Assembly: GCA_001780725.1 (NCBI GenBank)
Contig: MFIM01000027.1
Coordinates: 1-48,840, forward strand
From: Candidatus Giovannonibacteria bacterium RIFCSPLOWO2_02_FULL_45_28
GTDB lineage: Bacteria > Patescibacteriota > Minisyncoccia > UBA11713 > 2-01-FULL-45-33
Length of the DNA stretch: 48,840 nt
Direction: 5' to 3'
The notes below the pieces were generated by a model that was given only the letters and a program-made list of their open reading frames with translations, had not been told where the DNA came from and did no database searches. Of this stretch, positions 17,904 to 47,338 are shown in pieces. The position numbers and the translations under genes were made by a program. Position 1 is the stretch's first letter; every line of letters begins with the position of its first letter.

Positions 17904-19214
17904 ATGGCAAAATTTTTAGTGAACGGAGGCAGGGCGCTGGAAGGCGAGATTTCGGTTTCCGGCTCCAAAAACGCGTCTTTGCCGGCTCTGGCGGCTTCGC
18001 TGCTTTTTTCTGATGCGCCTCCGCTGTTTCAAAACCTTCCTGAAATTGAAGATATCAAAAGAATGAAAGAGCTCCTTCAAAGCCAAAAAGACGGGAGATT
18101 TGATTATGAAGTCGCAAAAAAAATCCGCGCTTCTATTTTGGCTGTCGGTCCCGCTCTTGCTAGATTCGGCCGCTCTTCTTTTCCGCATCCGGGAGGGTGT
18201 GTAATAGGCGCGCGCCCGATTGATGTTTTTTTTGATGGTTGGAAAGCAATGGGGGCAATTGTAGAAAAAACGCCGCCAAGCGGGAAGAAACCTGGTTTTT
18301 TGGCGGTCTCAAAACCAGGTTTCGAGGAGCTGGGCGGCGTTCACTCTATCCCAATTTACGAAATCCGTGCGCCTCAAGGACTTAGGGGCTGCGATTTTAC
18401 TTTTAGAGTGCCCAGCGTTACCGGAACAGAGGGTTTAATGATGACAGCTGTTTTGGCGCAAGGGCGGACGATTTTAAGAAACGTTGCCGAAGAGCCTGAA
18501 ATTCTAAGCTTGGCCGATTGGCTTAATAAAAATGGCGCAAAGATCGGCGGAGCGGGCACGCACACCATAACTATTGAAGGCCGCGGCGGAAAGCTGCTTT
18601 CCGGACAAGTTCCATTTTTGGCGCCGCCGGACCGCATAGAGGCAGGAAGTTTGGCAATTTTGGGGGCAATCGCGGCCAAAAAAATGACTATTAAAAATTT
18701 TCCTGAAAATGAACTTACGGCTCTGCTTGGGGTTTTAAAAACCGCAAGAGCTGAATTTGAAATAACGCATCATGACCACTCGCTATTCCCATCCATTACC
18801 TTAAAGCGAGCAACGAAGTTGCGAGCGGTTAATGTTCAAACAAAAGAATATCCCGGATTTGCCACGGATTTGCAAGCGCCGTATACCGTTCTTGCAACGC
18901 AGGCCGAAGGCGTGAGCATGATACACGAAACTATTTTTGAGGGGCGCCTAAATTATGTGGAAGATTTGAATAAAATTGGAGCGCGGATTAACCTTTGCGA
19001 TCCGCACCGCGCAATAGTGCACGGACCCTCTAATTTAACAGGATGGAATCTTGAGGGGCCGGATATCAGGGCGGGGCTTGCGTTTTTGATAGCCGCACTC
19101 GTAGCCAGAGGAGAATCTCAAATCGGCAATATTTATCAAATTGACCGCGGCCACGAAAAAATAGACGCACGCCTCCGCGCGCTAGGCGCGGATATTAAGA
19201 GGATGGAAGCTTGA
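17904..19214 (+). CDS. murA: UDP-N-acetylglucosamine 1-carboxyvinyltransferase
   Basis: SGSKNASLP, RASIL, PGGCVIGARP, SVTGTE, DRIEAG, YPGFATDLQ, IFEGR, DIRAG, IDRG; start moved to MAKF. Confidence 0.96.
   Translation: MAKFLVNGGRALEGEISVSGSKNASLPALAASLLFSDAPPLFQNLPEIEDIKRMKELLQSQKDGRFDYEVAKKIRASILAVGPALARFGRSSFPHPGGCVIGARPIDVFFDGWKAMGAIVEKTPPSGKKPGFLAVSKPGFEELGGVHSIPIYEIRAPQGLRGCDFTFRVPSVTGTEGLMMTAVLAQGRTILRNVAEEPEILSLADWLNKNGAKIGGAGTHTITIEGRGGKLLSGQVPFLAPPDRIEAGSLAILGAIAAKKMTIKNFPENELTALLGVLKTARAEFEITHHDHSLFPSITLKRATKLRAVNVQTKEYPGFATDLQAPYTVLATQAEGVSMIHETIFEGRLNYVEDLNKIGARINLCDPHRAIVHGPSNLTGWNLEGPDIRAGLAFLIAALVARGESQIGNIYQIDRGHEKIDARLRALGADIKRMEA
18269..18341 (+). repeat. GGGAA/GAGGA structured element, copy 1 (in murA)
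   Basis: AACGCCGCCAAGC-GGGAA-GAAACCTGGTTTT-N11-AAAACCAGGTTTC-GAGGA-GCTGGGCGGCGTT. Confidence 0.85.
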
Positions 19215-19245
19215 CTTCGAAATGTTTTGCGCTTATCATAACCTT

Positions 19246-19500
19246 ATGAAGAAAAAATTAACCAAAAAAGTGTACCAATATACAGCAGTTTTTGAATTAA
19301 ATAAGGGCGGCGGCTATACTGCGATTATCCCTGCTTTGCCGGGCTGTATTTCGGAAGGAGATAATTTTGAGGAGGCGCTAAAAAATATTGAAGAAGCAGC
19401 CTTACTTTACCTTGAAGATTTACGTGCGGATAAAATGCTTGAGGAATTTGCAAAAGACTCTCAAAAGATAGTCTTGGCTCCGATAAAAGTAATGGCATAA
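19246..19500 (+). CDS. hicB: HicB family antitoxin
   Basis: GGYTAIIPALPGCISEGDNFEEALKNIEEAALLYLE; TTGACT-N17-TATCAT ends 7 nt before this ATG. Confidence 0.9.
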   Translation: MKKKLTKKVYQYTAVFELNKGGGYTAIIPALPGCISEGDNFEEALKNIEEAALLYLEDLRADKMLEEFAKDSQKIVLAPIKVMA

Positions 19501-19507
19501 AACTGCT

Positions 19508-19726
19508 GTGCCAAAACTGCCAAGAGTTAAACCGAGAGAAATTATTGGCGCGCTAGAAAAAGCGAGCTTTTATTTTACTCGCCAGAAAGGCAGCCACAAG
19601 CTTTATAAAAAAGACAAATGCAGGGTTACGATTGCTTATCACAACAAAGATATGAACCCCAAAACCTTAAAACACATAATAGAGCAGTCCGGCCTAACAT
19701 TAGAAGAATTTATTAAATTGCTTTGA
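19508..19726 (+). CDS. hicA: HicA family toxin
   Basis: REIIGALEKASF..RQKGSH..VTIAYH..TLKHIIEQSG. Confidence 0.9.
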   Translation: MPKLPRVKPREIIGALEKASFYFTRQKGSHKLYKKDKCRVTIAYHNKDMNPKTLKHIIEQSGLTLEEFIKLL

Positions 19727-19775
19727 TGCTGCGATTGAAGTGGGGAGAATAAAATGCTATAAATGAGGCATATTC

Positions 19776-20792: not shown

Positions 20793-21363
20793 ATCTCACG
20801 CTTATTTATTTTCCGGCAATGACGAAAAGGCAAAAAATCAGGCAATTGAATTTTTAATGTCTCGTTTTTTGGAAAAAAACTGGAGACACAGCCCGGATTT
20901 TTTTAAGGTAGCCAGCGATCCAATTACAATTGACGACGTGCGCGCGTTGAAAATAAGAGCTTCGCAAAGTCCCGTAGCGGGGCTATATAACGTTTTTTTG
21001 ATAGAGAGTATTGAAAATTTGAGCAGAGACGCTGCTCCGGCGCTTCTGAAACTTCTTGAAGAGCCTTCGCAGAGGTGCGTTATAATAGCAACAACCGCCA
21101 ACGCAAGAGCTGTTTTACCGACAATCAAATCCCGCCTTTCCACATTCAGATTTTGGAACAAGAGTGCGCTCGAAAAAGATTACGGCAAAGACGATTTTGG
21201 GGCAGCTTTGCAAAAATCACTGGCCAGAGCCGAGGCGGGCGCGAGAACAAGTCCGACGCAAGACAATATTTCAAAATTTGAAAAAACGCTTGAAATTTAT
21301 AAAATTATAAACGACCCCACCGCCAACAAAAGGCTTTTGGGCGAATATTTAAATTTAATTTAA
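20776..21363 (+). CDS. holB: truncated DNA polymerase III delta-prime-like subunit
   Basis: SHAYLFSG, HSPDF, ITIDDVR, ALLKLLEEP, LPTIKSR. Confidence 0.75.
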   Translation: MLLNDKSHAYLFSGNDEKAKNQAIEFLMSRFLEKNWRHSPDFFKVASDPITIDDVRALKIRASQSPVAGLYNVFLIESIENLSRDAAPALLKLLEEPSQRCVIIATTANARAVLPTIKSRLSTFRFWNKSALEKDYGKDDFGAALQKSLARAEAGARTSPTQDNISKFEKTLEIYKIINDPTANKRLLGEYLNLI

Positions 21364-34566: not shown

Positions 34567-34571
34567 CTATT

Positions 34572-34643
34572 GGCCTCTTCGTCTATCGGCTAGGACGCAG
34601 CCCTCTCAAGGCTGAAAGATGGGTTCGACTCCCATAGGGGCCG
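34572..34643 (+). tRNA. tRNA-Glu(CTC)
   Basis: GGCCTCT/AGGGGCC acceptor, CAGCC-CTCTCAA-GGCTG, GGTTCGACTCC; no CCA. Confidence 0.93.
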
Positions 34644-34685
34644 AAAATAAAATAAACTGTATCAAGGTTTTATAATGTTTTATAA

Positions 34686-34752
34686 ACCGCTTCGCGGGAA
34701 AACATCCGATGTTTGAAGCACGCCAACATCGGATGTTGAAGAGCGGAGCGGT
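34686..34752 (+). repeat. GGGAA/GAAGA structured element, copy 2 (intergenic)
   Basis: ACCGCTTCGC-GGGAA-AACATCCGATGTT-N11-AACATCGGATGTT-GAAGA-GCGGAGCGGT. Confidence 0.85.
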
Positions 34753-34753
34753 G

Positions 34754-34762
34754 TTATCCACA
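34754..34762 (+). promoter_or_regulatory. consensus DnaA box
   Basis: TTATCCACA. Confidence 0.45.
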
Positions 34763-34852
34763 GCTTTTTAATAAAAATTTCTTTTGTTTAATTTTTATAA
34801 ACTCTATACTTAAAAATATGGAGTTTATTCATCTTTCTTGCAAAAGCTTTCT

Positions 34853-37800
34853 ATGAAATATATGAAAGAAAAGTATCTTTCAGCATCAGAAGCCGCGCGC
34901 TTATGTAATTATCATCGTATTTATGTTGGGCAGCTTTGCCGCGGAGGAAAAATTGATTGTAAAAAATTTGGAACGGATTGGATGGTGTCTGAAGAGTCAA
35001 TTTTAAATTACAAAAAAGAACTCACCAGTAAAAACCTATCCCTTACCCCTTCCCAAGGAAGGGGAAAAAACAACACCCTCCCCTTTGGGGAGGGTGAGGG
35101 TTGGGTTACAGAAAAAAGCTCCTCCACTTTACAAGACATCTTTCACGCGCAAGATAAGCCTGATGACGTGTGGGACAGGGCGATTTTGGGCGAAAAAGAG
35201 AAAGAAGCTTTTTGGTTCCCGGAATTTTCTCTGAAGCAGTGGTCGCTGGGAGCAGTCTCTCTATCGTCAATACTAATTGCCGCGCTGATTTTTTATAACG
35301 CAGGCGCAATCAAAAATTCTATCGCGGACGCGGTTGAAAGTGTTAATGTCTCCGCGAAAAACTTCGTAACTAAAACATCGTCAATCCCTCTCCTTGCGAA
35401 GGAGAGGATGGGGAACGTGGTTGAGTTCACCTCCTTAATAAGGAGGAGTGGTGAAGGGGTAGTGGAGATTTTCAATAATTTTGGAAGTTCAGGCTTGGAA
35501 CTTGCGCAAAACGGCAAAGATTGGGTTTCGGAAACCGCATCTGCCGTCGCCGATGAAATTAAAAATGGCTCTGCTCTATTAAACAAAATCCCTGATGTGG
35601 TTGCGGATAATCTCATCTTCGTGGAAAAAAAGGCTCTTGTGGCTCTTTCACTGCCCAAATTTTCTCTTCCTTTTACTTTGGAAGATGTCCGGCTTTCGCT
35701 TTCTGACATTAAGATGCGGTTTTTCAATAATATTTTTGCCGCTCGCGACTACATCGTCTTTCTGGGTTTAGATATTAAAAAGGTGGCGCTAGATTTTGTA
35801 TCGTCGCCCTCGCCGTCAGGGAAAACACTCGGTGTTTTTGGGGATTCAACACCGAGTGTTGAGGAGGACGGCGAGCAAAAACCGTCGCCCCTCATTGTCA
35901 GTAAAAACCTACCCCTTACCCCTTCCCAAGGAAGGGGAAAAAACAACACCCTCCCTTTTGGGGAGGGTGAGGGTGGGGTTACAGAAAAAAGCCCCCCCTT
36001 TTTACAAGGGGAGGGTTTGGAGAGGTCAAGAGGTGTTGATGAATCTTCCATCATCTCCCGCGTCCTTTCTTCCATTAATATCACGCAGCGTTTTCAGGAA
36101 TTGGAAAACCGTCTCACTTCCAACCTCTCACTTCTCATCTCTAATATTGAAAAACGCATTCCACCCAACGTCCAAAATCCGGTTGTTTTTTTAACCGCGT
36201 CTGCACCCTCTCCTATAAGAAATGATCCGCCGCAGCAGATTAGCGGAGTTTCCGCCGGCTTTGGAGATTTCTCGCAGGGGATTTCAACCGGAGGAAATCT
36301 TTCGGCGACCGGAAATGTCACTTTGGGCGACGACGCGAAAACCGCGAGCATTGCTTCAAGCGTTTGGGATATTACTTCTGCCGGCGCGGCTTCCGGATTT
36401 ATATCTCTCTCTACAAACTCTCTTTCCGCGTCCACATTTAATTTGTCGGGGCTTTTAACAACCGGTGGATTTATTGCAACAGCCTCTTCAACAATAATTG
36501 GGGATTTAACTTTTCAAAATGCAACTTCTACCGGATATTTATCAGTGACCGGTTCAGCAACTTCAACATTTGCCAACGGAATAAAACTTACAGGAGGATG
36601 TTTTCTTTTGCTTGACGGCACTTGCGCCGGGACAGGAAGCGGCTCTGGTTTGACTGGCACGATTGGGCAAGTCGCGTACTTCTCGGGGACCGACAGTGCG
36701 GTCGGCACCTCCACCATCGTCATTTCAACGAGCGGCAATGTCGGCATCGGGACAGCGGCGCCGCAAACCATTCTTGATGTCTTGGGTACCGCCTCATCCA
36801 CTCTCTATTTAGCAAATATTGGTTCTGAATCTGCCCCAGCGTACTCATTCGCGGGCGGTTCAAATGGGGGGTTCTTTCAAAATCCATCAGGTACTATCGG
36901 AATATCAACAGGAGGGGCTGCGAGGGTAACGTTCGCGAGTAGCGGACTATCTATGGGCGTGAATGGTACTGCGGCGAGTCCCAGCATCGCTTGGAGTGCA
37001 GACGGTGATACTGGTATCTTCCGCGATAGTTCTGACCAACTTGCTTTCACTGCCGGCGGCATTGAGGCGCTAAGATTTATTGAGGTAAATAGTATAGTCA
37101 CTTCGTATTTTAATGCAGGCAACGTCGGCATCGGGACGACTTCGCCTTCGGCTACGCTCAGCGTAGCTGGCAACACTTATCTTGATTCCAATTTAATTAC
37201 TTATTCTTCCTCAACCGCCGCGAATCTTACCATTTCATACCAGCGCGCGGCGACGACGACGATTCCACAAAGTATAAATGCTTTTGCCATCGGAACCACC
37301 ACCGGACCAACCGCGCCAATTCTTTCAATTGATGGTCTAAATGGAAGAGTCGGCATCGGGACGGCAAATCCTTTAGTGCCGTTGCAATTGAATGGCAATA
37401 TATTCCATATAAATAATGATAATGCCGAAATTGGATTAGGATCTTCGAGATCGTTCAATAGGCTCCTAGTAGATAGTGATACTAATGTTGGATTGGTAGG
37501 CAAGAAAAATGTGTGGATAGGCATTGACTCAGATAATAGCGGCACGGACGCCACCTTTGGTATAGTTGCCAATGATGATTGGTTGGGTGGGAGCGAAACG
37601 CCGTTGTTTACTGTTACAGAGGCTGGCTCCGTCGGTATCGGGACGACGAGTCCCGCAAGTTTGCTCTCCGTGGCTGGCAACACTTATCTTGATTCCAATT
37701 TAATTACTTATTCTTCCTCAACCGCCGCGAATCTTACCATTTCATACCAGCGCGCGGCGACGACGACGATTCCACAAAGTATAAATGCTTTTGCCATCGG

Positions 37801-40800
37801 AACCACCACCGGACCAACCGCGCCAATTCTTTCAATTGATGGTCTAAATGGAAGAGTCGGCATCGGGACGGCAAATCCTTTAGTGCCGTTGCAATTGAAT
37901 GGCAATATATTCCATATAAATAATGATAATGCCGAAATTGGATTAGGATCTTCGAGATCGTTCAATAGGCTCCTAGTAGATAGTGATACTAATGTTGGAT
38001 TGGTAGGCAAGAAAAATGTGTGGATAGGCATTGACTCAGATAATAGCGGCACGGACGCCACCTTTGGTATAGTTGCCAATGATGATTGGTTGGGTGGGAG
38101 CGAAACGCCGTTGTTTACTGTTACAGAGGCTGGCTCCGTCGGTATCGGGACGACGAGTCCCGCAAGTTTGCTCTCCGTGGCTGGCAACACTTATCTTGAT
38201 TCCAATTTAATTACTTATTCTTCCTCAACCGCCGCGAATCTTACCATTTCATACCAGCGCGCGGCGACGACGACGATTCCACAAAGTAGAAATGCTTTTG
38301 CCATCGGAACCACCACCGGACTAACCGCTCCAATTTTTTCAATTGATGGTCTAAATGGAAGAGTCGGCATCGGGACGGCGGCGCCAAGCGCTACTCTTAC
38401 CGTGCTTGGATCAGGCACCCTGCTTTCGCTCCAAAGTGGTGGTGGGGTGGCGTTTAGCGTTTCTACTTCTCAAATGCTTTTTGATGCTGATAATCAGCCT
38501 TTTGCTATTGGTGAAAATGCAGATTATTCACTTGGACATAATTCAACCACAGATAATTTTGAGATAGTTGATGGAAGTACAATAGGAACAAACGTTAGGA
38601 TGGTTATAAGTAGCTCCGGCAACGTCGGCATCGGGACGACGAGTCCGGCTGCCACACTCTCCGTAACTGGCAACACTTATCTAGATTCAAACTTAATTAC
38701 TTATTCTTCCTCAACCGCCGCGAATCTTACCATTTCATACCAGCGCGCGGCGACGACGACGATTCCCAATCTCGCCATCAACGCCTGGAGCATTGCCACC
38801 TCAACTTCCAATACTCCCGTCTTTACCATCTCTTCCACTTCTTCTCCCTTCGGACTGATAGGCATAGGCACCTCTTCTCCTTCTTACACCCTCTCAATTG
38901 CAGGAAACGAATACCTTACAGGAGGACTTGGAGTCGGCAAAGCCACCACAACCGCAGGAGTCATTGAATCTTCGGGACTCATACTCTCCGGAGGAGTCTT
39001 TGCGGCTTTGGGAACTGCAACCTCAACATTCTCGGGAGATATCAATCTTCCTACAGGCAAGTGCTACCAGGTGAATGGAACTTGCACTCTCATGAGCGCC
39101 ATTACATCTCTTAACGGACTTACTGGAACAACACAGACATTTGCTTCAAACGACTTAATTAGCATTGTTTCTCCCGCCGCCGGCACTGTACACAACTTCT
39201 ACGGCTCAACAACTCCCACTTTTGGATGGCTGCATGCAACGTCTTCAACAGCTTCGTTCTTTACAGGAGCTTTGGGTATCGGGACGACGAGTCCGTGGGG
39301 ATTGCTTTCAGTAAATCCAGATGGCATCTCCGGCCCCGCTTTCGTAGTCGGGTCTTCAACAGCAACTAATTTCATAGTAACCAACGGCGGCAACGTCGGC
39401 ATCGGGACGGCGGCACCTACTGCCGGACTCATGTTAGATATTAGGGGCGATATGTCTGTGAACAATGATGGTTACTATGCTTTTGCCGAAGATAAGGTTA
39501 ACTGGAGCATACACGGAAGGACCACTGACTCTACGACCATGTTAGGTTCGGCACTCAAAACAACGATTATCCCCGGTTCCGGTACGACCGAAGGCTTTGC
39601 TATTGCTGGTGCTGGCCTAGCGAGTTCTTTTGAAGCAAGAAACGATGGACAAATATACATGAAAGGCAACGTCGGCATCGGGACGACGAGTCCGGCTACC
39701 ACACTCTCCGTAGCAGGAAACACTTATTTAGATTCCAATTTAATTACTTATTCTTCCTCAACCGCTGCGAATCTTACCGTTTCCTACCAAAGAGCGGCGA
39801 CGACGACGATTCCAATAAATACCGTCTATGCTTGGTCTATCGCGACCTCCACCACCGCATCTCCTCTTTTTACTTTCAATACGAACGGGCCCTACGCGAC
39901 TACTTCCATAAATGGCGGATTTGTTTTGAATAACGGCGCAGTTAATTACGATTCATCAAGCGGCATAATTTCCGCGGATTCAATTCAGACCGGGCCCATG
40001 GGTTTTGACACCGACGCCGGAATTGTTTCCTGGATTGACATGCCAAGCTCTACCACCACCGCAAATATTGTAAACAGCTATTCCGCTATGCTGGATAGCA
40101 CAGCAATCCTCACGATTTACGGCACAACCACAACTTCAGGAAATATAACTTACGGTCATGTCGGCATCGGGACGACCAGCCCAACCATTGCTCGCCTTTC
40201 CGTTCAAGGCAACATCGCCGCTTTTGGCTGCATACGCTCCGCCACTTCTACTTATTCCATCGGGCCCGCAAGTTGTGTAGACATCGCCGAAACATACCCT
40301 ATATCGGAAGATGCCTCGGCTGGGGACATTATGATGGTAGGTCCGGATGGAAAATTAAAAAAAGCCACGGATCGCGCGGGGCTAATTGGCGTTGTGTCAA
40401 GCGAGCCGGCAATATTATTGGAAGGGCCTGTGGCGTTTTTCGGAAGCCAAATTAACAATCAAACACTAGAGCATAAAACTGGCTCTATGGCGCCCATTGC
40501 TTTAGCCGGAAGGGTCCCTGTAAAAGTTTCGGCAGAAGGCGGCCCAATAAAACCGGGAGATAGAATAACAATTTCTTCGGCGCCCGGAGTCGGAATGAAA
40601 GCTACCACCTCCGGCCAGACCGTTGGGATCGCTTTAGAGCCGTACGACAGCGGAGAAATCGGTAAAATAATTGTTTTTATAAATCTTGGTTATTCAAAAC
40701 TGGATTCAGGATTATCTCAAGCGCTGGATGGAAATGGGGGATTAATTGTTGATCAGGCAAGCGGCAAAATGAAATCTTCTTACACTTTGGATATGGACAA

Positions 40801-41377
40801 TAACGACATTATAAACGCGCGGAAAATTCTCTCTGCCTCCGGGCTTTGGTCAATTGACGAGAACGGGAAGCTAATCGTTCAGGAAATTGAAACCAAAAAA
40901 CTCACTGTAACAGGACAGCAGGGGATTACTATTTACGACCGCGTTACAGGACAACCCGTTTGTGTTTATTCCGAAAACGGAGTTTTGAAGTCGGAAGATG
41001 GGGAGTGTTGGGCCGCCGAAACTGGCGGGAAAACATCCGATGTTTCCGCCGAAGGCGGATCCGCCTCTGGCGGAGAGGAGCTAGTTTCGGATACTGACCC
41101 TCCAACAATCTCAATTTTGGGCAACAATCCTTCCGCCATTAATGTAGGCGGAACCTATTCTGACATGGGGGTCACGGTAACTGATAATATTGATCAAAAT
41201 TTGGGATACACGGCTTCTTTAGATGGCGGGCTTGAACTTTTGCAGGGAGATGGACTTCAAATTGATACCTCAAAGGCTGGCGAACATATAATTATTTACA
41301 CGGCAGCGGATTCGGCAGGGAATACCGCTTCGTCCACAAGAACAGTAGAAGTAGTAGAAATTTATGGAAATCAGTAG
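34853..41377 (+). CDS. giant membrane-anchored fibre/adhesin-like protein
   Basis: N-terminal excisionase-like HTH (YLSASEAARLCNY..YVGQLCRGGKI), TM, about 12 GNVGIGT modules, chaperone/autoprocessing-like region (DIAETY..GVVS..ALAGRVPVKV..IKPGD), C-terminal DUF5011-like Ig (DTDPPTISILGNNP). Start uncertain (34838/34853/34862). Confidence 0.85.
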   Translation: MKYMKEKYLSASEAARLCNYHRIYVGQLCRGGKIDCKKFGTDWMVSEESILNYKKELTSKNLSLTPSQGRGKNNTLPFGEGEGWVTEKSSSTLQDIFHAQDKPDDVWDRAILGEKEKEAFWFPEFSLKQWSLGAVSLSSILIAALIFYNAGAIKNSIADAVESVNVSAKNFVTKTSSIPLLAKERMGNVVEFTSLIRRSGEGVVEIFNNFGSSGLELAQNGKDWVSETASAVADEIKNGSALLNKIPDVVADNLIFVEKKALVALSLPKFSLPFTLEDVRLSLSDIKMRFFNNIFAARDYIVFLGLDIKKVALDFVSSPSPSGKTLGVFGDSTPSVEEDGEQKPSPLIVSKNLPLTPSQGRGKNNTLPFGEGEGGVTEKSPPFLQGEGLERSRGVDESSIISRVLSSINITQRFQELENRLTSNLSLLISNIEKRIPPNVQNPVVFLTASAPSPIRNDPPQQISGVSAGFGDFSQGISTGGNLSATGNVTLGDDAKTASIASSVWDITSAGAASGFISLSTNSLSASTFNLSGLLTTGGFIATASSTIIGDLTFQNATSTGYLSVTGSATSTFANGIKLTGGCFLLLDGTCAGTGSGSGLTGTIGQVAYFSGTDSAVGTSTIVISTSGNVGIGTAAPQTILDVLGTASSTLYLANIGSESAPAYSFAGGSNGGFFQNPSGTIGISTGGAARVTFASSGLSMGVNGTAASPSIAWSADGDTGIFRDSSDQLAFTAGGIEALRFIEVNSIVTSYFNAGNVGIGTTSPSATLSVAGNTYLDSNLITYSSSTAANLTISYQRAATTTIPQSINAFAIGTTTGPTAPILSIDGLNGRVGIGTANPLVPLQLNGNIFHINNDNAEIGLGSSRSFNRLLVDSDTNVGLVGKKNVWIGIDSDNSGTDATFGIVANDDWLGGSETPLFTVTEAGSVGIGTTSPASLLSVAGNTYLDSNLITYSSSTAANLTISYQRAATTTIPQSINAFAIGTTTGPTAPILSIDGLNGRVGIGTANPLVPLQLNGNIFHINNDNAEIGLGSSRSFNRLLVDSDTNVGLVGKKNVWIGIDSDNSGTDATFGIVANDDWLGGSETPLFTVTEAGSVGIGTTSPASLLSVAGNTYLDSNLITYSSSTAANLTISYQRAATTTIPQSRNAFAIGTTTGLTAPIFSIDGLNGRVGIGTAAPSATLTVLGSGTLLSLQSGGGVAFSVSTSQMLFDADNQPFAIGENADYSLGHNSTTDNFEIVDGSTIGTNVRMVISSSGNVGIGTTSPAATLSVTGNTYLDSNLITYSSSTAANLTISYQRAATTTIPNLAINAWSIATSTSNTPVFTISSTSSPFGLIGIGTSSPSYTLSIAGNEYLTGGLGVGKATTTAGVIESSGLILSGGVFAALGTATSTFSGDINLPTGKCYQVNGTCTLMSAITSLNGLTGTTQTFASNDLISIVSPAAGTVHNFYGSTTPTFGWLHATSSTASFFTGALGIGTTSPWGLLSVNPDGISGPAFVVGSSTATNFIVTNGGNVGIGTAAPTAGLMLDIRGDMSVNNDGYYAFAEDKVNWSIHGRTTDSTTMLGSALKTTIIPGSGTTEGFAIAGAGLASSFEARNDGQIYMKGNVGIGTTSPATTLSVAGNTYLDSNLITYSSSTAANLTVSYQRAATTTIPINTVYAWSIATSTTASPLFTFNTNGPYATTSINGGFVLNNGAVNYDSSSGIISADSIQTGPMGFDTDAGIVSWIDMPSSTTTANIVNSYSAMLDSTAILTIYGTTTTSGNITYGHVGIGTTSPTIARLSVQGNIAAFGCIRSATSTYSIGPASCVDIAETYPISEDASAGDIMMVGPDGKLKKATDRAGLIGVVSSEPAILLEGPVAFFGSQINNQTLEHKTGSMAPIALAGRVPVKVSAEGGPIKPGDRITISSAPGVGMKATTSGQTVGIALEPYDSGEIGKIIVFINLGYSKLDSGLSQALDGNGGLIVDQASGKMKSSYTLDMDNNDIINARKILSASGLWSIDENGKLIVQEIETKKLTVTGQQGITIYDRVTGQPVCVYSENGVLKSEDGECWAAETGGKTSDVSAEGGSASGGEELVSDTDPPTISILGNNPSAINVGGTYSDMGVTVTDNIDQNLGYTASLDGGLELLQGDGLQIDTSKAGEHIIIYTAADSAGNTASSTRTVEVVEIYGNQ
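35026..35992 (+). repeat. 94-bp in-frame multi-hairpin repeat, two copies (35026-35119, 35899-35992)
   Basis: 3 mismatches between copies; contains CCCCTTCC-caa-GGAAGGGG and CCCTCCCC-ttt-GGGGAGGG. Confidence 0.85.
35809..35875 (+). repeat. GGGAA/GAGGA structured element, copy 3
   Basis: CTCGCCGTCa-GGGAA-AACACTCGGTGTT-N11-AACACCGAGTGTT-GAGGA-gGACGGCGAG. Confidence 0.85.
37166..38288 (+). repeat. 507-bp tandem duplication (about 2.2 copies) in the giant gene
   Basis: Units start at 37166, 37673 and 38180; the ORF track shows identical antisense ORFs offset by 507. Confidence 0.9.
41016..41090 (+). repeat. GGGAA/GAGGA structured element, copy 4 (composite)
   Basis: CCGAAACTGGC-GGGAA-AACATCCGATGTT-TCCGCCgaaGGCGGA-TCCGCCtctGGCGGA-GAGGA-GCTAGTTTCGG. 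Confidence 0.85.
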
Positions 41378-41993
41378 AAACTTATGGAAATTGATTTTGA
41401 TTGCGGCGCTGATTTTGGGTGCGGCGAGTTTCTATAAGTTTCAATTTATTTCCACAAGTTTCAATGATTCCAATGGCTCTCAACCAGTTTCAACCAATTT
41501 CAACGAATATCGCAACGCAGATTTCAAATTTTCTTTTCAGTATCCTAAAAACCTAACTCTCCAGGAATTTGATGATGAAAGGGGACATGTGATTTTGTTT
41601 GAGGCGAGCGGGAAAACATCCGATGTTGAATCCCCAAAAACATCGGATGTTGAGGAGCTCGCCGGCTTCCAAATTTTCATAGCTCCTTTCGACGAAGAAG
41701 GCCCAATAACTCCCGAACGCATAAAAAAAGACTTGCTTAATATTGTCGTGGAAAATCCAACTCCGACAAAAGTCGGCCCTTCGACAGGCTCAGGGCAAGC
41801 TGACGCTTTGAGTTTTGTCGGAGAAGGGGACCCGCCTACCGGCGAGGCAGGCGGCTTTAAAACCGCCGAGGTCTGGTTTGTTTATCCCCCCGAACCCTAC
41901 CCCAACGGAAATTATCTTTATCAAGTCACCGCGAAGCTGGAGGACGCAACTTTAATAGAAGAGATTTTGAAAACATGGAGATTTAGCCGCTGA
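41364..41993 (+). CDS. membrane-anchored PsbP-like protein
   Basis: TM, YRNADFKFSFQYP, GFQIFI, EVWF..YLYQV, EILKTWRF; carries three palindromic inserts. Confidence 0.7.
   Translation: MEISRNLWKLILIAALILGAASFYKFQFISTSFNDSNGSQPVSTNFNEYRNADFKFSFQYPKNLTLQEFDDERGHVILFEASGKTSDVESPKTSDVEELAGFQIFIAPFDEEGPITPERIKKDLLNIVVENPTPTKVGPSTGSGQADALSFVGEGDPPTGEAGGFKTAEVWFVYPPEPYPNGNYLYQVTAKLEDATLIEEILKTWRFSR
41603..41663 (+). repeat. GGGAA/GAGGA structured element, copy 5
   Basis: GGCGAGC-GGGAA-AACATCCGATGTT-N11-AACATCGGATGTT-GAGGA-GCTCGCC. Confidence 0.88.
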
Positions 41994-42028
41994 TACTTCG
42001 CTGATTACTACGCAGATAAAACGCTGAT
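41988..42028 (+). repeat. left array of 4 CGCWGAT units
   Basis: Units at 41988, 41999, 42011, 42022. Confidence 0.85.
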
Positions 42029-42030
42029 CT

Positions 42031-42435
42031 ATGAAAAACAAAGTAAAATATTTTTTATACGAGAGGGAGTCCTACCTTATACGAGGGGCGTGTTTTGAGG
42101 TATGGAAAGAATTTAAAGGTATGTTTAAAGAATCGGTAATAGACCGCGCTCTAAACATCGCGCTTGAATCACGCGGCTTAAAAGTTGAATCGCAGAAGAG
42201 AATTGATATCTACTTTAAAGATAAAAAGGTGGGCACTTATGTTCCCGATAAAATTGTTGAAGGCAAGATTCTGCTCGAGTTAAAAGCAAAACCATTTATT
42301 ACTAAACAAGATATTGAACAATTTTGGAAGTACCTTAAGGGCTCACAATACAAACTTGGGTTTCTTATAAATTTTTCACCCACGAGATTACAAATTAAAC
42401 GCGTCGTATATGATACTGCCCGTAAATCAGCGTAA
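42031..42435 (+). CDS. GxxExxY family protein (PD-(D/E)xK nuclease fold)
   Basis: SYLIRGACFEVWKEFKGMFKESV, VGTYVPDKIVEGKILLELKA, YLKGSQYKLGFLINF. Confidence 0.88.
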   Translation: MKNKVKYFLYERESYLIRGACFEVWKEFKGMFKESVIDRALNIALESRGLKVESQKRIDIYFKDKKVGTYVPDKIVEGKILLELKAKPFITKQDIEQFWKYLKGSQYKLGFLINFSPTRLQIKRVVYDTARKSA

Positions 42436-44593
42436 AATCAGCGTTTTTATCAGCATGATATCAGCGGTCGTTGTAGCCGCCTTTCTTTTTATCGTATCAC
42501 CCAATAGTGCGGCGGCCGCCTTACTCATAAATCGCCCCTTATATATCGGCTTAAATAGCGGCCTCGTCGGCTACTGGTCTTTTGATGGCCCGGATATGGC
42601 GAACGTCACCGCTTACGACCGCTCGGGTAACGCGAACAACGGCACTCTCACCAACGGCCCCACTCGAGCAGTAGGCAGAATCGGCCAGGCGCTGGAGTTT
42701 GACGGGGCAGATGACAGAGTTGATATCAGCTCCCCCAGTTTTAATGGCGCAGAACCATTTACAATCAGCGTATGGATAAAACCTGCGAGTTTGGGGGAAG
42801 GAAGTTTGGGACGCATTATGTCGTTTAATAATGCCACTACTGATGACTTAAGAATGGGTGTCGGTCCATTAGTAAATTTTTCCCCCAATGGTGGTGCGGG
42901 AGGGGATTGTGACTCTAACAATATTACTCTTAATGTTTGGGTTCATGTGGTGTTTACGCTTTCAAGCACAGGTGTTTGTACATTTTACATTGATGGAGTG
43001 AATCAAACTTTTGATAGTTCTGGTCAAACAATCGGGGCTTCAACAAGTTTTTCCATAGGAAATTTGGTAGGTGGCGTAACTAGAACTTTCGACGGTCCCA
43101 TTGACGAATTCCGTTTCTACAATCGCATCCTCTCCCCAGACGAAATAAAACGCCTCTATAAAATCGGGGCGACGCTGAAAGTCAATAAACCCAACTATGT
43201 GGGGTTGGATAACGGCCTCGTCGGCTATTGGTCTTTTGACGGGCCGGATATGGCGGGGAACACCGCGTACGATAGAAGCGGGCAAAACAACCACGTCTCT
43301 TCTACCGGGTCAAATATGCCTACTCGCTCGGCTGGAAAAATAGGGCAGGGACTGAAGTTCGACAATGCCAATGATTATATTGAGATTACTTCCTTTGCGC
43401 GCGGAGGCAACTTTACCTGGGCGGGATGGATTTTCCCCATAACCACCGGTGGGGGAGATAAAGGCAGACTATTCAATAATGGCATCACAGGGGCTATACA
43501 GGTTGGTTTGTATGTAAGCGGATCGCCTACACCATATATAGAATTAACAACCAATACTGGAGTATGGAGAAGCCCAAGTGGGAGCATAGAACTGAATAAA
43601 TGGCAACATGTAGCAGTTGTTTTTGATTCCACCTCTACGAATAACGATCCTGTTTTCTATATCAATGGATCTTTAGTATCAACATCGGAGTTTACTACGC
43701 CCACGAATACGCCATCGGACAATGTTTTGCTTACTATTGGAAATAATCCTAATACCGAGCTTACTAGGACCTTTGACGGAACTCTTGATGAAATGCGTGC
43801 CTACAACCGCGCGCTGTCGGCGGACGAAATCAAACGCCTCTACAAAATCGGGGCGACGCTGAAAGTAAATAAACCTAACTACGTGGGCTTAAATAGCGGC
43901 CTCGTCGGCTACTGGTCTTTTGACGGCCCGGATATGTACAACAACACCGCGCTTGACCGCTCCGGTCAGGGCAACAACGGCACGCTCACAAACGGCCCCA
44001 CGCGCAAAGTTGGCCGCATCGGCCAGGGGCTGGAGTTTGATGGGAGTAATGATTATGTGGATATTGCCAACGAAAGTAACTTTGATTTTGAGCGTACCCA
44101 ACCATTTTCATATTCTCTATGGACAAAACCTAAGGCTGGGGATACCAGTATTTCCTTAGCGCTTGGAAAAATTTTAGATTCTGGAAATTTCACTGGATGG
44201 GCACTTCTTACAAATTACGATTATAGTTCTAACACCGAAGTAGCCGGCAGATTAGCTGTAGCACTTGTCAATATCTCCGGTACCACAAATGCTATTGGTA
44301 TTGAGGCTGATTCAAAGATCAATGATGGAGGATGGCATCATTATACTGTTACATATGATGGTTCAAGCTTTGCAAGTGGTATAAAAATCTATGAAGATGG
44401 TATATCACTTGCTCTTAATGTTGCTTCTGATAGCCTTACCGGTTCGATACTTAATAACGTTAATGTAGAAATCGGTGATAGAGATAGTGGTGCGAGTTCC
44501 TTAAACTATCCCGGCCTTATCGACGAAGTCCGCATCTACAACCGCGCGCTTTCCGGCGATGAAATCAAGCGGCTCTATAATTTGGGACGGTAG
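42410..44593 (+). CDS. secreted protein with three LamG-like jelly-roll domains
   Basis: Signal peptide; 3x GLVGYWSFDG...GQ.L.FD...W.H...G..DE.R.YNR.LS..EIKRLY; true start may be 42455. Confidence 0.88.
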   Translation: MILPVNQRKISVFISMISAVVVAAFLFIVSPNSAAAALLINRPLYIGLNSGLVGYWSFDGPDMANVTAYDRSGNANNGTLTNGPTRAVGRIGQALEFDGADDRVDISSPSFNGAEPFTISVWIKPASLGEGSLGRIMSFNNATTDDLRMGVGPLVNFSPNGGAGGDCDSNNITLNVWVHVVFTLSSTGVCTFYIDGVNQTFDSSGQTIGASTSFSIGNLVGGVTRTFDGPIDEFRFYNRILSPDEIKRLYKIGATLKVNKPNYVGLDNGLVGYWSFDGPDMAGNTAYDRSGQNNHVSSTGSNMPTRSAGKIGQGLKFDNANDYIEITSFARGGNFTWAGWIFPITTGGGDKGRLFNNGITGAIQVGLYVSGSPTPYIELTTNTGVWRSPSGSIELNKWQHVAVVFDSTSTNNDPVFYINGSLVSTSEFTTPTNTPSDNVLLTIGNNPNTELTRTFDGTLDEMRAYNRALSADEIKRLYKIGATLKVNKPNYVGLNSGLVGYWSFDGPDMYNNTALDRSGQGNNGTLTNGPTRKVGRIGQGLEFDGSNDYVDIANESNFDFERTQPFSYSLWTKPKAGDTSISLALGKILDSGNFTGWALLTNYDYSSNTEVAGRLAVALVNISGTTNAIGIEADSKINDGGWHHYTVTYDGSSFASGIKIYEDGISLALNVASDSLTGSILNNVNVEIGDRDSGASSLNYPGLIDEVRIYNRALSGDEIKRLYNLGR
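42426..42466 (-). repeat. right array of 4 ATCAGCR units (inverse of the left array)
   Basis: Units at 42426, 42437, 42449, 42460. Confidence 0.85.
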
Positions 44594-44619
44594 ATTTTTG
44601 TTGGGAAATATGCTATAAT
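44591..44619 (+). promoter_or_regulatory. leaderless promoter of TA pair 1
   Basis: TAGATT-N17-TATAAT with TG extension, ATG 7 nt later. Confidence 0.7.
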
Positions 44620-44625
44620 GAACAA

Positions 44626-44823
44626 ATGTATAACTGGTCAACCGATATAAAAAACCTTAAAAAACACCCGGAAAAATATAAAATCTGGAGGCTTGAACAG
44701 ATGATAAATTTTGGTTTGAATGGTAAAAAATTGAAAGAATTTGAGCTTAATAAATATTTTAACAAACTCAAAATCGATCCGTATCGTCGTAAATTTTTAA
44801 AACTACTTTTGAATGGAAAGTAA
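44626..44823 (+). CDS. putative antitoxin (DUF6922-like)
   Basis: 65 aa, NWSTD..L.K....IWRLEQMINFG; overlaps an AbiEii-like gene. Confidence 0.65.
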   Translation: MYNWSTDIKNLKKHPEKYKIWRLEQMINFGLNGKKLKEFELNKYFNKLKIDPYRRKFLKLLLNGK

Positions 44824-45469
44824 AATTTTAGACGAAAGGCAAATTAAATTTTTAGAAGAATTTCAAAAAATACCATTTTTGAAAGATAATTTTTATCTTA
44901 CCGGAGGGACGGCTCTTGCGGCTTTTTATCTCAAACATCGTTATTCGGAAGATTTGGATTTTTTTTCGGAAAAAGAAATAGATCTTTTAAATTTAGACAC
45001 GTCGTTAAAAAAACTTCAGAAAACATTAAAGCCGAATAAGGTTGATTTTCAGCAAAGCTATAATCGCAACTTATTTTTTTTGAGTTTCGGAAAACATATT
45101 TTAAAAACCGAATTTACTTATTTCCCATTCCTGAGAATAGACAGCAAGGTTTCAAAAAAAGGCATTTCTGTAGATAGCTTGATAGATATCGCGGTAAATA
45201 AGCTTTTTACCATATATCAGAGGGTTGCCGCGCGGGACTATATAGATTTGTATTTTATAATTGAGCGAGAAGACTTTAAAATTAACGACTTGATTTTGAA
45301 AGCTAAAGCAAAATTTGATTGGAATGTAGATCCTATACAGTTGGGGGCGCAATTTGTTAAATCCGGAGAAGCCGAAGATTTTCCAAGAATGATTGAGAAA
45401 ATCAAAACAGCTGTTTGGAGAAAATTTTTTATTGATGAAGCGAAAAAACTAAAGAGAAAAATTATTTAA
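44813..45469 (+). CDS. AbiEii/AbiGii-family nucleotidyltransferase toxin
   Basis: FYLTGGTALA..HRYSEDLDFF, DIAVNKL..IYQR..RDYIDLYF. Confidence 0.88.
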   Translation: MESKILDERQIKFLEEFQKIPFLKDNFYLTGGTALAAFYLKHRYSEDLDFFSEKEIDLLNLDTSLKKLQKTLKPNKVDFQQSYNRNLFFLSFGKHILKTEFTYFPFLRIDSKVSKKGISVDSLIDIAVNKLFTIYQRVAARDYIDLYFIIEREDFKINDLILKAKAKFDWNVDPIQLGAQFVKSGEAEDFPRMIEKIKTAVWRKFFIDEAKKLKRKII

Positions 45470-45470
45470 T

Positions 45471-45551
45471 GGCCTCATCGACGATGTCCGCGTCTACAAC
45501 AGGGCGCTTAATGGGAACGAGATTAAGAGATTGTATAATTTGGGGAGATAG
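45471..45551 (+). pseudogene. orphan 3' end of a LamG gene
   Basis: GLIDDVRVYNRALNGNEIKRLYNLGR*, 22/26 aa identical to 44513-44593; no start codon. Confidence 0.9.
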
Positions 45552-45583
45552 ATTTTTACTCAAATGCATGCTATAATAAGGGC

Positions 45584-45817
45584 ATGATTCCATCCAACAT
45601 TAAGCGGTATTTTTGGGAAGTAGATACGGAAAAACTTAATCCCAAGAAGCGTCCGGAATATATTATTTCGCGGCTATTAGAATACGGCAGGCCCGACGCG
45701 ATCCGCTGGGCATGGAGGTCTTTTTCTAAAAAAGAATGGGGAAAGGCGTTAAAATTACGTGAGGTGTCAAGGAAAAGCAAAAATTTTTGGTTGCCGTTTT
45801 TGTCTAATAAACAATGA
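45584..45817 (+). CDS. putative antitoxin (DUF6922-like)
   Basis: YFWEVDTEKLNPKKRPEYIISRLLEYG; TGCTATAAT ends 7 nt upstream. Confidence 0.75.
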   Translation: MIPSNIKRYFWEVDTEKLNPKKRPEYIISRLLEYGRPDAIRWAWRSFSKKEWGKALKLREVSRKSKNFWLPFLSNKQ

Positions 45818-46212
45818 ATTTTTCTTTGGAAAATATCAGGCCCAATGTCAGGGCTCTGGCGGAAAAATTAAGCGCCAAAAGTTTTATTAGTAAGTTTTAT
45901 TTGGCGGGCGGAACTGCTATCGCACTATTTTTTAATCATAGGCGTTCTGACGATTTAGACTTTTTTTCGGAAAAAATGTTTAAAGGAGTGGCTTTGATAA
46001 ACAATTTAAAAAAAACAGGTAAATTCGAAACACTCAAAACAGACGAAAACACCTTAATCGGCAAATTAAATGGCGTCAAAAGTCTTGCTTATTTTAATGA
46101 CGCAGAATACGATGAAATGCCAGAAATGTATATTGATATTAAATGGCGGGAGGTAAAAAATTTTTTCTTGAAACAAAAGTTGGTTTTAGCCAAAAAGTTC
46201 TTCGGAATTTAA
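45814..46212 (+). pseudogene. AbiEii-family toxin with in-frame internal deletion
   Basis: FYLAGGTAIAL..HRRSDDLDFF..GVK joined directly to SLAYFNDAE; 132 aa vs 218 aa neighbour; K..R..D..D helix region missing. Confidence 0.7.
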
Positions 46213-46258
46213 TTGTGCGAGAATCAAGCGGCTTTATAATCTCGGCCGTTAGACAAAT

Positions 46259-47338
46259 ATGAAATTTGCGTTAAAAATCATATTTATATTTCTGATTTTT
46301 GTGGCCATTCTTATTTTACTTGCTCCGGCAAAACAGAAACTTTCTTACGGAGTCACTTTTTCGCAAAAATTTTCAGAAGAGTTTGGGTTTGAATCTGCAA
46401 ACGGTATGGCGGGTTGGAAGCGGAATTATCTCGCGCTTCTGGACGATTTGAAAGTTAAAGATTTGCGTCTCGTAGCATATTGGGATTTGGTAGAACCCGC
46501 CGAAAGCCAATTTAATTTTAAAGATTTGGATTGGCAAATTACCGAAGCTGAAAAACGCGGAGCAAAAATTATTTTAGTAGTAGGCAGAAAAGTGCCAAGA
46601 TGGCCGGAATGTCACATTCCATCATGGGCGCGCTTTTCAACGCCACCCGGGAAGAAGTCCGACTTCTTTGGGGTTTCGAAGTCCGACTTCGAGGAGGGCG
46701 GCGTTTTCCAGCGCGCCCAATTACTAAATTACATTAAAACAACCATAGAACACTACCGCTCCAACCCCGCTATCATTGCTTGGCAGGTTGAAAACGAACC
46801 CCTGTTTCCGTTCGGCGAGTGCGGCACAATTCCAGTTTCGCTTTTAAATCAGGAAATTAAATTGGTGAAATCGTTGAGCAATAAGCCGGTTATTTTAACC
46901 GATTCCGGCGAGTTGGGGTTCGCTTGGCCGTACCTTGCCGCAAAATCCGACATCTTCGGCACTACATTATATAGATATATAAACAACAGATTTTTAGGCG
47001 ATATCCGTTATTCGCTTATTCCGGCTTATTATTTTAGAATTAAAGCGCGGTGGGCTGGCAAGATTTTAGGGAAACAAATAATAATTTCTGAGCTGCAAGC
47101 CGAACCGTGGTCGCAAGTTTCCCTTGCCGAGACTTCTTTTGATGACCAAGCTAAAAGTATGAGTCCGGAAAAATTCAGAGAAATTATTGATTACGCCGAA
47201 CGAAGCGGTTTTCCTAAGGCCTATCTTTGGGGCGCGGAATGGTGGTATTGGATGAAAGAAAAACAAGGGAGGCCGGAGATGTGGGAAGCGGCACGGAGCG
47301 CAATTAATAACCCGCCTGCCGGACGGGCAGGTTTCTAA
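46259..47338 (+). CDS. membrane-anchored clan GH-A glycoside hydrolase (GH5/GH42-like)
   Basis: YWDLVEP..F.F..LDWQI, PRWPECH, WQVENEP, ISELQAEPW, YLWG. Confidence 0.8.
   Translation: MKFALKIIFIFLIFVAILILLAPAKQKLSYGVTFSQKFSEEFGFESANGMAGWKRNYLALLDDLKVKDLRLVAYWDLVEPAESQFNFKDLDWQITEAEKRGAKIILVVGRKVPRWPECHIPSWARFSTPPGKKSDFFGVSKSDFEEGGVFQRAQLLNYIKTTIEHYRSNPAIIAWQVENEPLFPFGECGTIPVSLLNQEIKLVKSLSNKPVILTDSGELGFAWPYLAAKSDIFGTTLYRYINNRFLGDIRYSLIPAYYFRIKARWAGKILGKQIIISELQAEPWSQVSLAETSFDDQAKSMSPEKFREIIDYAERSGFPKAYLWGAEWWYWMKEKQGRPEMWEAARSAINNPPAGRAGF
46639..46705 (+). repeat. GGGAA/GAGGA structured element, copy 6
   Basis: AACGCCACCC-GGGAA-GAAGTCCGACTTC-N11-GAAGTCCGACTTC-GAGGA-GGGCGGCGTT. Confidence 0.85.

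Follow-up and report, generated by a model that had tools for sequence, protein, structure and literature searches.

A 48,840-nucleotide (nt) stretch of DNA from Candidatus Giovannonibacteria bacterium RIFCSPLOWO2_02_FULL_45_28 (contig MFIM01000027.1, here called the window), a groundwater member of the Patescibacteria or candidate phyla radiation (CPR), carries six copies of a short palindromic element, five of which lie inside genes. The element is probably a selfish, non-autonomous DNA that resembles the REPINs (doublets of repetitive extragenic palindromic sequences, or REPs, forming hairpins), is associated with REP-associated tyrosine transposases (RAYTs), and is translated in frame inside the genes that it occupies. 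Judged by sequence, its 13-nt palindromes appear to be the recognition palindromes (REPs) of diversified Y1/HUH RAYT-like transposases encoded elsewhere in the genome, by which the element would be mobilised. A REP-like element, or one like the Rickettsia palindromic elements (RPEs), moved in trans by a HUH transposase was among the possibilities raised in a preliminary description of the window, and it is the one that we favour: eight RAYT-like genes are present in the genome, and the 13-mers match palindromes that flank such genes. The source genome (G000) consists of 886,299 bases in 29 contigs and is 98% complete; the window is its contig C27, relatives are labelled G001, G002 and so on, and C stands for contig.

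The six window copies (Table 1) share one build: an outer stem of 7-13 base pairs (bp), the 5-mer GGGAA, a 13-mer, an 11-nt spacer, the reverse-complement 13-mer, the 5-mer GA(G/A)GA and the second stem arm. The sequence of the outer stem varies between copies while its complementarity is kept, and G.T positions are tolerated in the stems of the copies at 34686 and 41016. The 13-mers are of four kinds, each nearly self-palindromic (for example AACATC-C-GATGTT), and the second is the reverse complement of the first, with centre C in one and G in the other; the exception is the copy at 46639, where C stands in both and the hairpin has a C.C mismatch at its centre. Direct reading confirms the preliminary description on these points, including the starts at 18269, 34686, 35809, 41016, 41603 and 46639, the four 13-mers as quoted, and the single reading frame of the five coding copies. 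Folded as single-stranded DNA (ssDNA), five of the six adopt the described structure (z -4.2 to -7.1, an equally good fold being reached by 0 of 200 shuffles), and the copy at 46639 prefers two small hairpins (z -2.8), so that each 13-mer is able to fold alone. In murA the outer stem is 13 bp long with one mismatch, and the copy encodes TPPSGKKPGFLAVSKPGFEELGGV. The intergenic copy has the loop TGAAGCACGCC and GAAGA as its right 5-mer, and the copy at 41603 has the loop GAATCCCCAAA, the reverse complement of the common loop TTTGGGGATTC. The variant copy at 41015 was also correctly described, in that GGGAA, one 13-mer and GAGGA are kept and a tandem TCCGCC-NNN-GGCGGA doublet, which makes two hairpins, lies between the 13-mer and GAGGA at 41045-41074.

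The preliminary description had proposed scanning the genome and its relatives with a covariance model, and one was built from five window copies (77 positions, 23 pairs). In the source genome it gave 47 matches at E <= 0.01. They comprise 30 separate places on the forward strand (E <= 9.2e-9) and 17 weaker matches, of at most 37 bits, that lie mostly on the opposite strand of the same places. An nhmmer profile made from 22 exact-pattern seeds gave 35 non-overlapping matches at E < 1e-3 in the same genome. Of 19 other genomes from the family of the source genome, 16 carry the element by the covariance model, at 1 to 37 copies each, whereas 41 genomes that each stand for a different further family of the class gave no match at E <= 1e-6. 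Among the genomes sampled the element family is restricted to one bacterial family, and its copy number is far beyond chance. Nothing was found that speaks for a phage origin: viral contigs gave no match to an exact degenerate pattern of the AACATC-type core, the one type searched there.

Over 31 distinct rows of the alignment, the paired share of cells at paired positions is 94.2%, whereas shuffles give 71.1% and slid controls 34-43%. Double changes occur in 20 of the 23 pairs, and the covariation score is 0.653 against 0.256, a value of 0.653 being reached by 0 of 500 shuffles; the inner helix is 98.7% paired, with double changes in 10 of its 13 pairs. In DNA palindromes such covariation shows that inverted repeats are maintained, and not necessarily that an RNA structure is. 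The earlier statement that structure and not sequence is conserved stands for the stems, which covary strongly, but the 13-mers fall into a few discrete types equal to palindromes at the flanks of RAYT-like genes, and the CGCC/GGCG ends and the 5-mers are conserved in sequence. A position matrix of 52 copies (22 of the 30 in G000 and 30 of the 37 in G001) leaves as conserved positions only CGCC (-8 to -5), C (-1), GGGAA, GAGGA, G (+1) and GGCG (+5 to +8). The conserved unit is 63 nt, or 21 codons, long: CGCC-N3-C-GGGAA-[13-mer, 11 nt, 13-mer]-GAGGA-G-N3-GGCG. As ssDNA it makes one long hairpin in which two helices of 10-13 bp are parted by a 5x5 purine internal loop, and the 11-nt loops are found in both orientations. 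Outer stems, with at most one mismatch allowed, are most often 13 bp (16 copies) or 10 bp (11 copies) long, and pairing often resumes after a 5-nt gap. At locus L099 the outer stem is a perfect 16 bp that includes an AT-rich stretch from the flank, unique to that locus. The outer stem may travel whole with the unit or may be partly copied from the flank; net inserts of 54-63 nt relative to empty orthologues fit either. A solo scaffold (GGGAA, one 13-mer, GAGGA) was sought in the source genome and the single match was spurious.

Within the window all copies lie on the sense strand, as had been reported, but this does not extend to the genome, where 14 copies are sense to the host open reading frame (ORF), 15 are antisense and one is intergenic. 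The 29 copies inside long ORFs leave them open in either orientation. All 14 sense copies are read GGG AAx, the frame of the five coding copies of the window, and encode (T)PP-x-GK, a tetrapeptide (TSDV, TLGV, KSDF or KPGF), 3-4 residues, the same tetrapeptide again and EE-x-GG. The 15 antisense copies likewise share one frame and encode PPSS, a tetrapeptide, three residues, K, a tetrapeptide, FP and mostly GG. Stop codons were rejected as the cause of this uniformity, since 10-26 of 28 copies, according to the frame chosen, have no stop in the alternative frames. The hosts, essential genes among them, encode proteins that include MurA, leucyl- and another class I aminoacyl-tRNA synthetase, seryl-tRNA synthetase, GatB, UvrA, UvrB, an enzyme of the CCA-adding/poly(A) polymerase family and a class V aminotransferase. 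In the window, the earlier labels murA (EPSP_synthase family) and glycosyl hydrolase (Glyco_hydro_42, 37.9 bits) agree with Pfam; the label "PsbP-like" has to be dropped, ORF 41364-41993 matching no Pfam family at E <= 1e-3. In an AlphaFold model of MurA (mean predicted local distance difference test, pLDDT, 87.3) the insert, residues 139-159, falls below pLDDT 50 and forms a coil between two strands. The inserts are probably translated, as short, disordered surface loops bracketed by Pro and Gly. The genome, 0.89 Mb in size and nearly devoid of intergenic DNA, accommodates at least 29 in-frame inserts of 21-24 codons.

The preliminary description saw no mobilising enzyme in the window, and indeed no transposase gene of the Y1/HUH RAYT-like kind lies there. 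The rest of the genome has eight matches to PF01797 (Y1_Tnp) over the cut-off (23-45 bits), in ORFs of 211-276 amino acids. These paralogues are 31-61% identical to one another, with HUH and a Tyr invariant. Among known structures the best Foldseek match to a RAYT structural model, and the sole one at E <= 1e-3, is 4er8 (E 1e-4), the E. coli RAYT bound to a REP hairpin, followed by the IS608 and ISDra2 transposases (2xm3, 2vjv and 2a6o were among the structures met across the profile and Foldseek searches). A RAYT profile reaches ISDra2 TnpA at E 0.034 only, with HUH and Tyr aligned, and a single RAYT-like protein finds nothing among PDB sequences at E <= 1. The genome has no match to rve, DDE_Tnp_1 or TnpB. 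RAYT-like genes occur in 19 of 20 genomes of the family and in 33 of 61 sampled across the class, and thus have a wider distribution than the scaffolded element.

Seven of the eight RAYT-like genes in the source genome have the same palindrome just upstream and just downstream, often with a further copy within the ORF, and the flanking palindromes differ between paralogues. Two of them contain 13-mers of the element (Table 1). In relatives, RAYT-like genes are flanked by AACAC-NNN-GTGTT (G001), AACATC-N-GATGTT (G004 and G031) and AAACC-N-GGTTT (G001, G017, G018 and G031), usually with two or three palindrome copies per gene, and each of the five 13-mer types is found as the flanking palindrome of a RAYT-like gene somewhere in the family. 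That each 13-mer is self-palindromic would follow from its being a REP. The palindromes of the RAYT-like genes are also dispersed across the source genome singly and as doublets free of the scaffold: GAAGTC copies number 23 inside the scaffold and 23 outside it, and there are 15 copies of CTTGGCGG..CCGCCAAG, 8 of CTTGGGTGTC..GACACCCAAG and 9 of TTAGACGTC..GACGTCTAA.

The GAAGTC palindrome has in addition a third architecture, a tight scaffold-free doublet GGAAGTCCGACTTCC-N4-GGAAGTCGGACTTCC, at C1:45929, C16:26526, C19:16342, C19:22170, C20:16799 and C24:10924. RAYT-like genes themselves carry their own flanking palindrome in frame at C9:64979, C29:23183, C19:13146 and C19:6474; one such palindrome encodes the residues LGGSAAK, which are absent from the paralogues.

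Orthologues of murA and of the glycosyl hydrolase, in which it had been proposed to look for empty sites, mostly lack the insert. In murA most are 420-425 amino acids long, compared with 448 here, and at the glycosyl-hydrolase site G001 has the same element and the site is empty in G005, G002 and G013 (contig C7). At both sites G003 has a GACGTC-type doublet without the scaffold and G005 only stem-like sequence. Contig C25 of G013, the representative genome of another species, encodes, at 1941-3017, a glycosyl hydrolase 100% identical to that of the window, so that G013 is not fully independent of G000; G013 is listed with 4% contamination, and the contig may be shared or mis-binned. Of the 30 copies in G001, 27 could be compared with the orthologous site in the source genome, the host ORF being found broken at the other three. 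Three of these sites hold an element of the same type and orientation, 17 are occupied by another 13-mer type and/or orientation, one retains a 30-nt remnant of an internal deletion and six have no recognisable element. The site of the copy at 35807, for example, has the same 13-mer type in G001 in inverted orientation. Orthologous sites persist between genera, and the cassettes in them change.

Exactly 13 nt upstream, 13 of the 52 copies have a TCCTC-like 5-mer, and exactly 13 nt downstream 13 have a TTCCC-like one; 10 copies have both. Smaller peaks of the 5-mer spacing fall at 7, 10 and 16 nt, in steps of three. The 5-mers spaced at 13 nt are those of a unit that sits inverted inside another unit, and for nesting in the same orientation the orthologous pair L101 and C12:21540 is the sole example. 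At five orthologous sites (L098, L116, L097, L103 and L113) a simple resident in the source genome corresponds to a copy in G001 with an AAACC-type unit in its apex. The outer scaffold there is the same, and 3 nt of the resident inner stem are left on each side (at L103 on the right side only). The unit nested in the apex is 67 nt long and consists of a 10-nt stem, the core and a 10-nt stem. Identical units of 61-67 nt occur at unrelated sites, and that of L113 is identical in sequence to the unit at C1:129314 of the source genome. Replacement of an apex changes the length by 36 nt, and the reading frame is therefore kept automatically. An internal deletion, also in frame, is found at L107.

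From these arrangements we infer that a RAYT paralogue would bind the 13-mer hairpins in ssDNA, cut at fixed distances from them, and then paste or copy the unit, preferably into the hairpin of a resident copy. With such a preference sites would persist while their cassettes turn over, and the frame would be preserved by construction. The model is borrowed from transposition of the insertion sequences (IS) IS200/IS605, in which cutting takes place at fixed distances from hairpins. Stems would later be perfected, or extended into the flank, by template switching on quasi-palindromes. Template-switch correction of quasi-palindromes is an established process, and it is invoked here for the stem at L099. 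A bolder proposal, which we put forward tentatively and would sooner expect to fail than to hold, is that essential genes carry permanent docking hairpins whose whole apexes are exchanged as cassettes by a site-specific ssDNA enzyme. The enzyme would read the GGGAA/GAGGA loop and cut both arms 3 bp above it, which is 10 bp below the next loop; apexes would be exchanged either way round, in steps that are always a multiple of three bases, and the cassette population at the fixed sites would turn over with whichever RAYT paralogue is active. If this were true, the element would be a self-nesting replicator that is frame-safe by construction, and its junctions would reveal the chemistry of REPIN transposition.

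Several observations weigh against mobilisation by RAYTs. The RAYT-like proteins score 29-32 bits with the NCBIfam RayT model, the cut-off of which is 80, and the structural model is of moderate quality (pLDDT 72.8). The preliminary description had expected a RAYT- or IS200-like gene flanked by the motif; this is borne out for the 13-mer palindromes and not for the scaffold, since none of the RAYT-like genes found is flanked by CGCC-N4-GGGAA...GAGGA-N4-GGCG. The abundance of 13-mer types tracks cognate RAYTs weakly. In a tally of 8 genomes and 4 types (32 cells, in which kin are not independent and a subset of all the RAYTs is covered) the mean is 5.0 copies with a cognate RAYT (9 cells) and 2.9 without one (23 cells). 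On one side, G001 has 15 AAACC-type units, a burst specific to its lineage, together with an AAACC-cognate RAYT (L124) and the source genome has 2 units and no such RAYT, and units of the GAGTC family (GAAGTC) number 12 in G000 and 7 in G017, both of which have a GAAGTC RAYT. On the other, AACAC units are common in G000, G002, G018, G031 and G003, none of which yielded an AACAC RAYT, and AAACC RAYTs occur in G017, G018 and G031, genomes without AAACC scaffold units. The 13-mers alone would form very short hairpins, and outer stems that partly copy the local flank, as at L099, have no explanation in simple cut-and-paste. One copy in G001, L119, is read in another frame. Transposition of the IS200/IS605 type predicts a strong lagging-strand bias, and no clear bias of this kind is seen, only a weak link with GC skew: the strand of the element agrees with local GC skew at 19 places and disagrees at 11, compared with 25 and 5 for the strand of the host gene, on contigs that are short.

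The most serious competitor of RAYT-driven spread, although an unlikely one, is that the palindromes multiply through host replication and recombination alone, by template switching at hairpins, slippage and gene conversion, and that RAYT-like genes share the 13-mers merely because palindromes land everywhere, beside these genes included. Locally perfected stems such as the 16-bp stem with flank sequence would be expected from such processes, as would loops in both orientations, in-frame internal deletions as at L107, the weak genome-level correlation with cognate RAYTs and a scaffold that has no RAYT of its own. Random landing does not, however, predict a paralogue-specific palindrome on both sides of a gene and usually also within its ORF. 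Copies share only 5-13 nt of homology. Identical units of 61-67 nt stand at unrelated sites, and the constant position at which resident hairpins take up new units speaks for a site-specific enzyme.

It is very improbable that the module is selected as protein, that is, that many proteins have recruited an acidic/basic loop bracketed by Pro-Pro and Gly-Gly and that the palindromy of the DNA is secondary. The use of a single frame in each orientation although others are often open, the similar peptides obtained from both orientations (PP-x-GK..EE-x-GG and PPSS..FP-GG) and the persistence of sites across genera would all suit such a module. But the hosts are unrelated housekeeping enzymes, their orthologues work without the insert, the type of peptide changes at one and the same site, the insert in MurA is predicted to be disordered, one copy is intergenic, and the uniform frame follows from replacement of apexes in units of 3n at a fixed position.

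We give hardly any credence to a cis-acting element of the mRNA, a processing, protein-binding or translational pause site recognised by its hairpin and purine loop, which the preliminary description had offered in part. The sense orientation of the five coding window copies, the strong conservation of the 5x5 purine loop and the tolerance of G.T positions in stems had spoken for it. Genome-wide, however, orientation to the host gene is random, the outcome that the preliminary description had itself named as decisive against an RNA-level signal, and this refutes the mRNA reading: in 15 of the 29 coding copies the mRNA carries a pyrimidine loop, TCCTC/TTCCC. The hosts are also functionally unrelated, and orthologues lack the element or carry it inverted. 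A search of the window at Rfam gathering scores returned four tRNAs only, and an E-value search of 40900-41800 returned only microRNA hairpin models (E 0.06-0.43), far below their gathering scores. A classical miniature inverted-repeat transposable element, derived by deletion from an IS with a DDE transposase and having double-stranded terminal inverted repeats and a target-site duplication, would likewise be short, multi-copy and almost wholly inverted repeat, but is next to impossible to reconcile with termini that are not conserved beyond CGCC/GGCG, with no rve or DDE_Tnp_1 match in a 98%-complete genome, and with the lack of direct repeats of 3-8 nt at 8, 10, 13 or 16 nt outside the 5-mers, where at most 2 of 52 copies match, near expectation.

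Compared with REP/REPIN-RAYT systems, as described in the available parts of PMC2817692, PMC3116915, PMC3337134, PMC3333891, PMC3479197, PMC8266576 and PMC5581495, the element is alike in its inverted doublets of a short palindrome, which with a short spacer form one hairpin in many dispersed copies, and in its long persistence at orthologous sites. The divergent Y1/HUH genes are alike in being each flanked by a palindrome of its own (which holds here for the 13-mers and not for the scaffold) and in lacking near-identical duplicates. Those systems are extragenic, whereas 29 of 30 copies here are intragenic and in frame; the REPs here are only 13 nt long, different REP types are set in one common scaffold whose GGGAA/GAGGA loop is fixed, and units nest in one another at fixed spacing. 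Eight RAYT-like paralogues in 0.89 Mb contrast with the 1.3-1.8 RAYTs per replicon given in the part of PMC5581495 compared. The host lineage also sets this case apart from the literature found: our searches returned no paper in which RAYT or REPIN is linked to CPR, Patescibacteria or Giovannonibacteria, and PMC6006769 is without those words.

REPs have been defined by a GTAG/CGTC end tag (PMC3733652); here GTAG is absent, CGTC occurs only within the GACGTC type, and the flanks are GGGAA and GAGGA. The same paper, in the part available, describes intragenic REPs and REP dimers that encode 20-30 amino acids, in uvrA and uvrB among other genes, and equates some of them with Rickettsia RPEs. The present inserts resemble these as in-frame palindromic repeats in genes for known proteins, uvrA and uvrB included, and are therefore not new in kind. 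The supplementary tables of intragenic REPs in PMC3733652, which lie outside this comparison, may hold closer precedents. In the parts of these sources compared we found no description of a scaffold with a fixed 5x5 purine loop that is shared by different REP types, of the 63-nt unit, of units nested recursively with a constant spacing that keeps the frame, or of conserved sites whose cassettes turn over; nor did we find one of eight RAYT-like paralogues in 0.89 Mb or of such a system in the CPR. Cognate RAYT-like genes distinguish the present element from the RPEs. To our knowledge, no transposase is known for RPEs.

With IS200/IS605 elements and palindrome-associated miniatures the system shares a Y1/HUH enzyme and hairpins near both ends of its gene, and, like IS200/IS605, it involves neither recognition of terminal inverted repeats nor a target-site duplication. 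Unlike IS200/IS605, it has no TnpB partner in the source genome, its transposase genes are not multi-copy, identical insertion sequences, there is no clear lagging-strand bias, and the target appears to be another hairpin and not a tetranucleotide. Palindromic amphipathic repeat coding elements (PARCELs) are, in the part of PMC2996958 compared, tandem repeats within genes for surface proteins of Mollicutes and protists; they too are palindromic coding DNA that gives similar peptides in either orientation, but the present element consists of dispersed single hairpins linked to a transposase.

The mechanisms by which REPs and REPINs disseminate are called poorly understood in the available part of PMC8266576. 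Nested copies, together with filled, empty and swapped orthologous sites, provide junctions precise to the base (a conserved unit of 63 nt, an inserted unit of 67 nt, and 3 nt of resident stem on each side), through which this open mechanism becomes testable. Such junctions, together with a set of RAYT paralogues that differ in their cognate hairpins, offer biochemistry concrete substrates. The inserts also have practical consequences, as they break metagenome assemblies and create spurious similarity between proteins. A murA query matched dozens of unrelated ORFs because of the shared insert. In four metagenome DNA runs compared over 40500-47500, contigs run unchanged across the glycosyl-hydrolase copy and are broken within the copy at 41603; no trustworthy joint across any element was seen in these runs, the joints listed having 20-46 nt per side at 85% likeness and coming from elsewhere.

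Table 1. Copies of the element and related palindromes in the window, and RAYT-like genes of the source genome with element 13-mers or window palindromes at their flanks. Positions without a contig label refer to the window.
Feature	Position	Strand	Context	13-mer type or palindrome	Covariance-model score
Copy in murA	18269..18341	+	ORF 17868-19214, sense	GAAACC/AAACC-N-GGTTT	87.9 bits
Sole intergenic copy	34684..34754	+	between tRNA-Glu (34571-34644) and giant-ORF start 34838	AACATC	84.9 bits
Copy in giant ORF	35807..35877	+	ORF 34838-41377, sense	AACAC-NNN-GTGTT	87.2 bits
Variant copy in giant ORF	41015..41091	+	ORF 34838-41377; outer stem, GGGAA, one 13-mer, GAGGA	AACATC	
Copy with 7-bp outer stem	41603..41663	+	ORF 41364-41993, sense	AACATC	78.5 bits
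Copy in glycosyl-hydrolase-like ORF	46639..46705	+	ORF 46259-47338, sense	GAAGTC	87.9 bits
Scaffold-free palindromes	16496..16535		ORF 16263-16970; family flanking RAYT-like gene C19:12695-13339	ACTTAGACGCCGGACGTCTAAGT then GACGTCCGGCGTC	
Single palindrome	48052..48080		ORF 47359-48621; same as flanks of RAYT-like gene C14:17936-18571	CCCACTTGGGTGTCGGACACCCAAGTGGG	
RAYT-like gene	C19:6153-6983		an element 13-mer	GAAGTC-S-GACTTC	
RAYT-like gene	C19:12695-13339		an element 13-mer	GACGTC-S-GACGTC	
RAYT-like gene	C14:17936-18571		palindrome on both sides	CCCACTTGGGTGTCGGACACCCAAGTGGG	

Other repeats were observed as well. The TCCGCC-NNN-GGCGGA palindromes form a dispersed family of their own, with 25 motif matches in the source genome, mostly as tandem doublets preceded by TTT. 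Over 40968-41201 the depth of contigs from the four metagenome runs goes up from about 3-5 to 30-206, with many different loose ends on both sides, and this pile-up over the doublet indicates a wide distribution of the repeat in the samples. A long AT-rich inverted repeat (GAAACTTATGGAAAT ... ATTTCCACAAGTTTC) extends over 41354-41465, from the end of the giant ORF to the start of ORF 41364-41993, and drew the sub-threshold microRNA-hairpin matches from Rfam. Within the giant ORF a repeat of about 43-60 nt occurs twice (35040-35100 and 35913-35975) and is made up of two G/C palindromes, CCCCTTCCCAAGGAAGGGG and CACCCTCCC-NTTT-GGGGAGGGTG. Similar CCCTCCC...GGGAGGG hairpins are extra in-frame inserts in the glycosyl-hydrolase orthologue of G001 and at the site in the source genome orthologous to L117. 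The giant ORF also holds an exact direct duplication of at least 616 nt with an offset of 507 nt (37166-38288), and a near-exact direct repeat of 38 nt is present in ORF 42410-44593, at 42548-42585 and 43886-43923.

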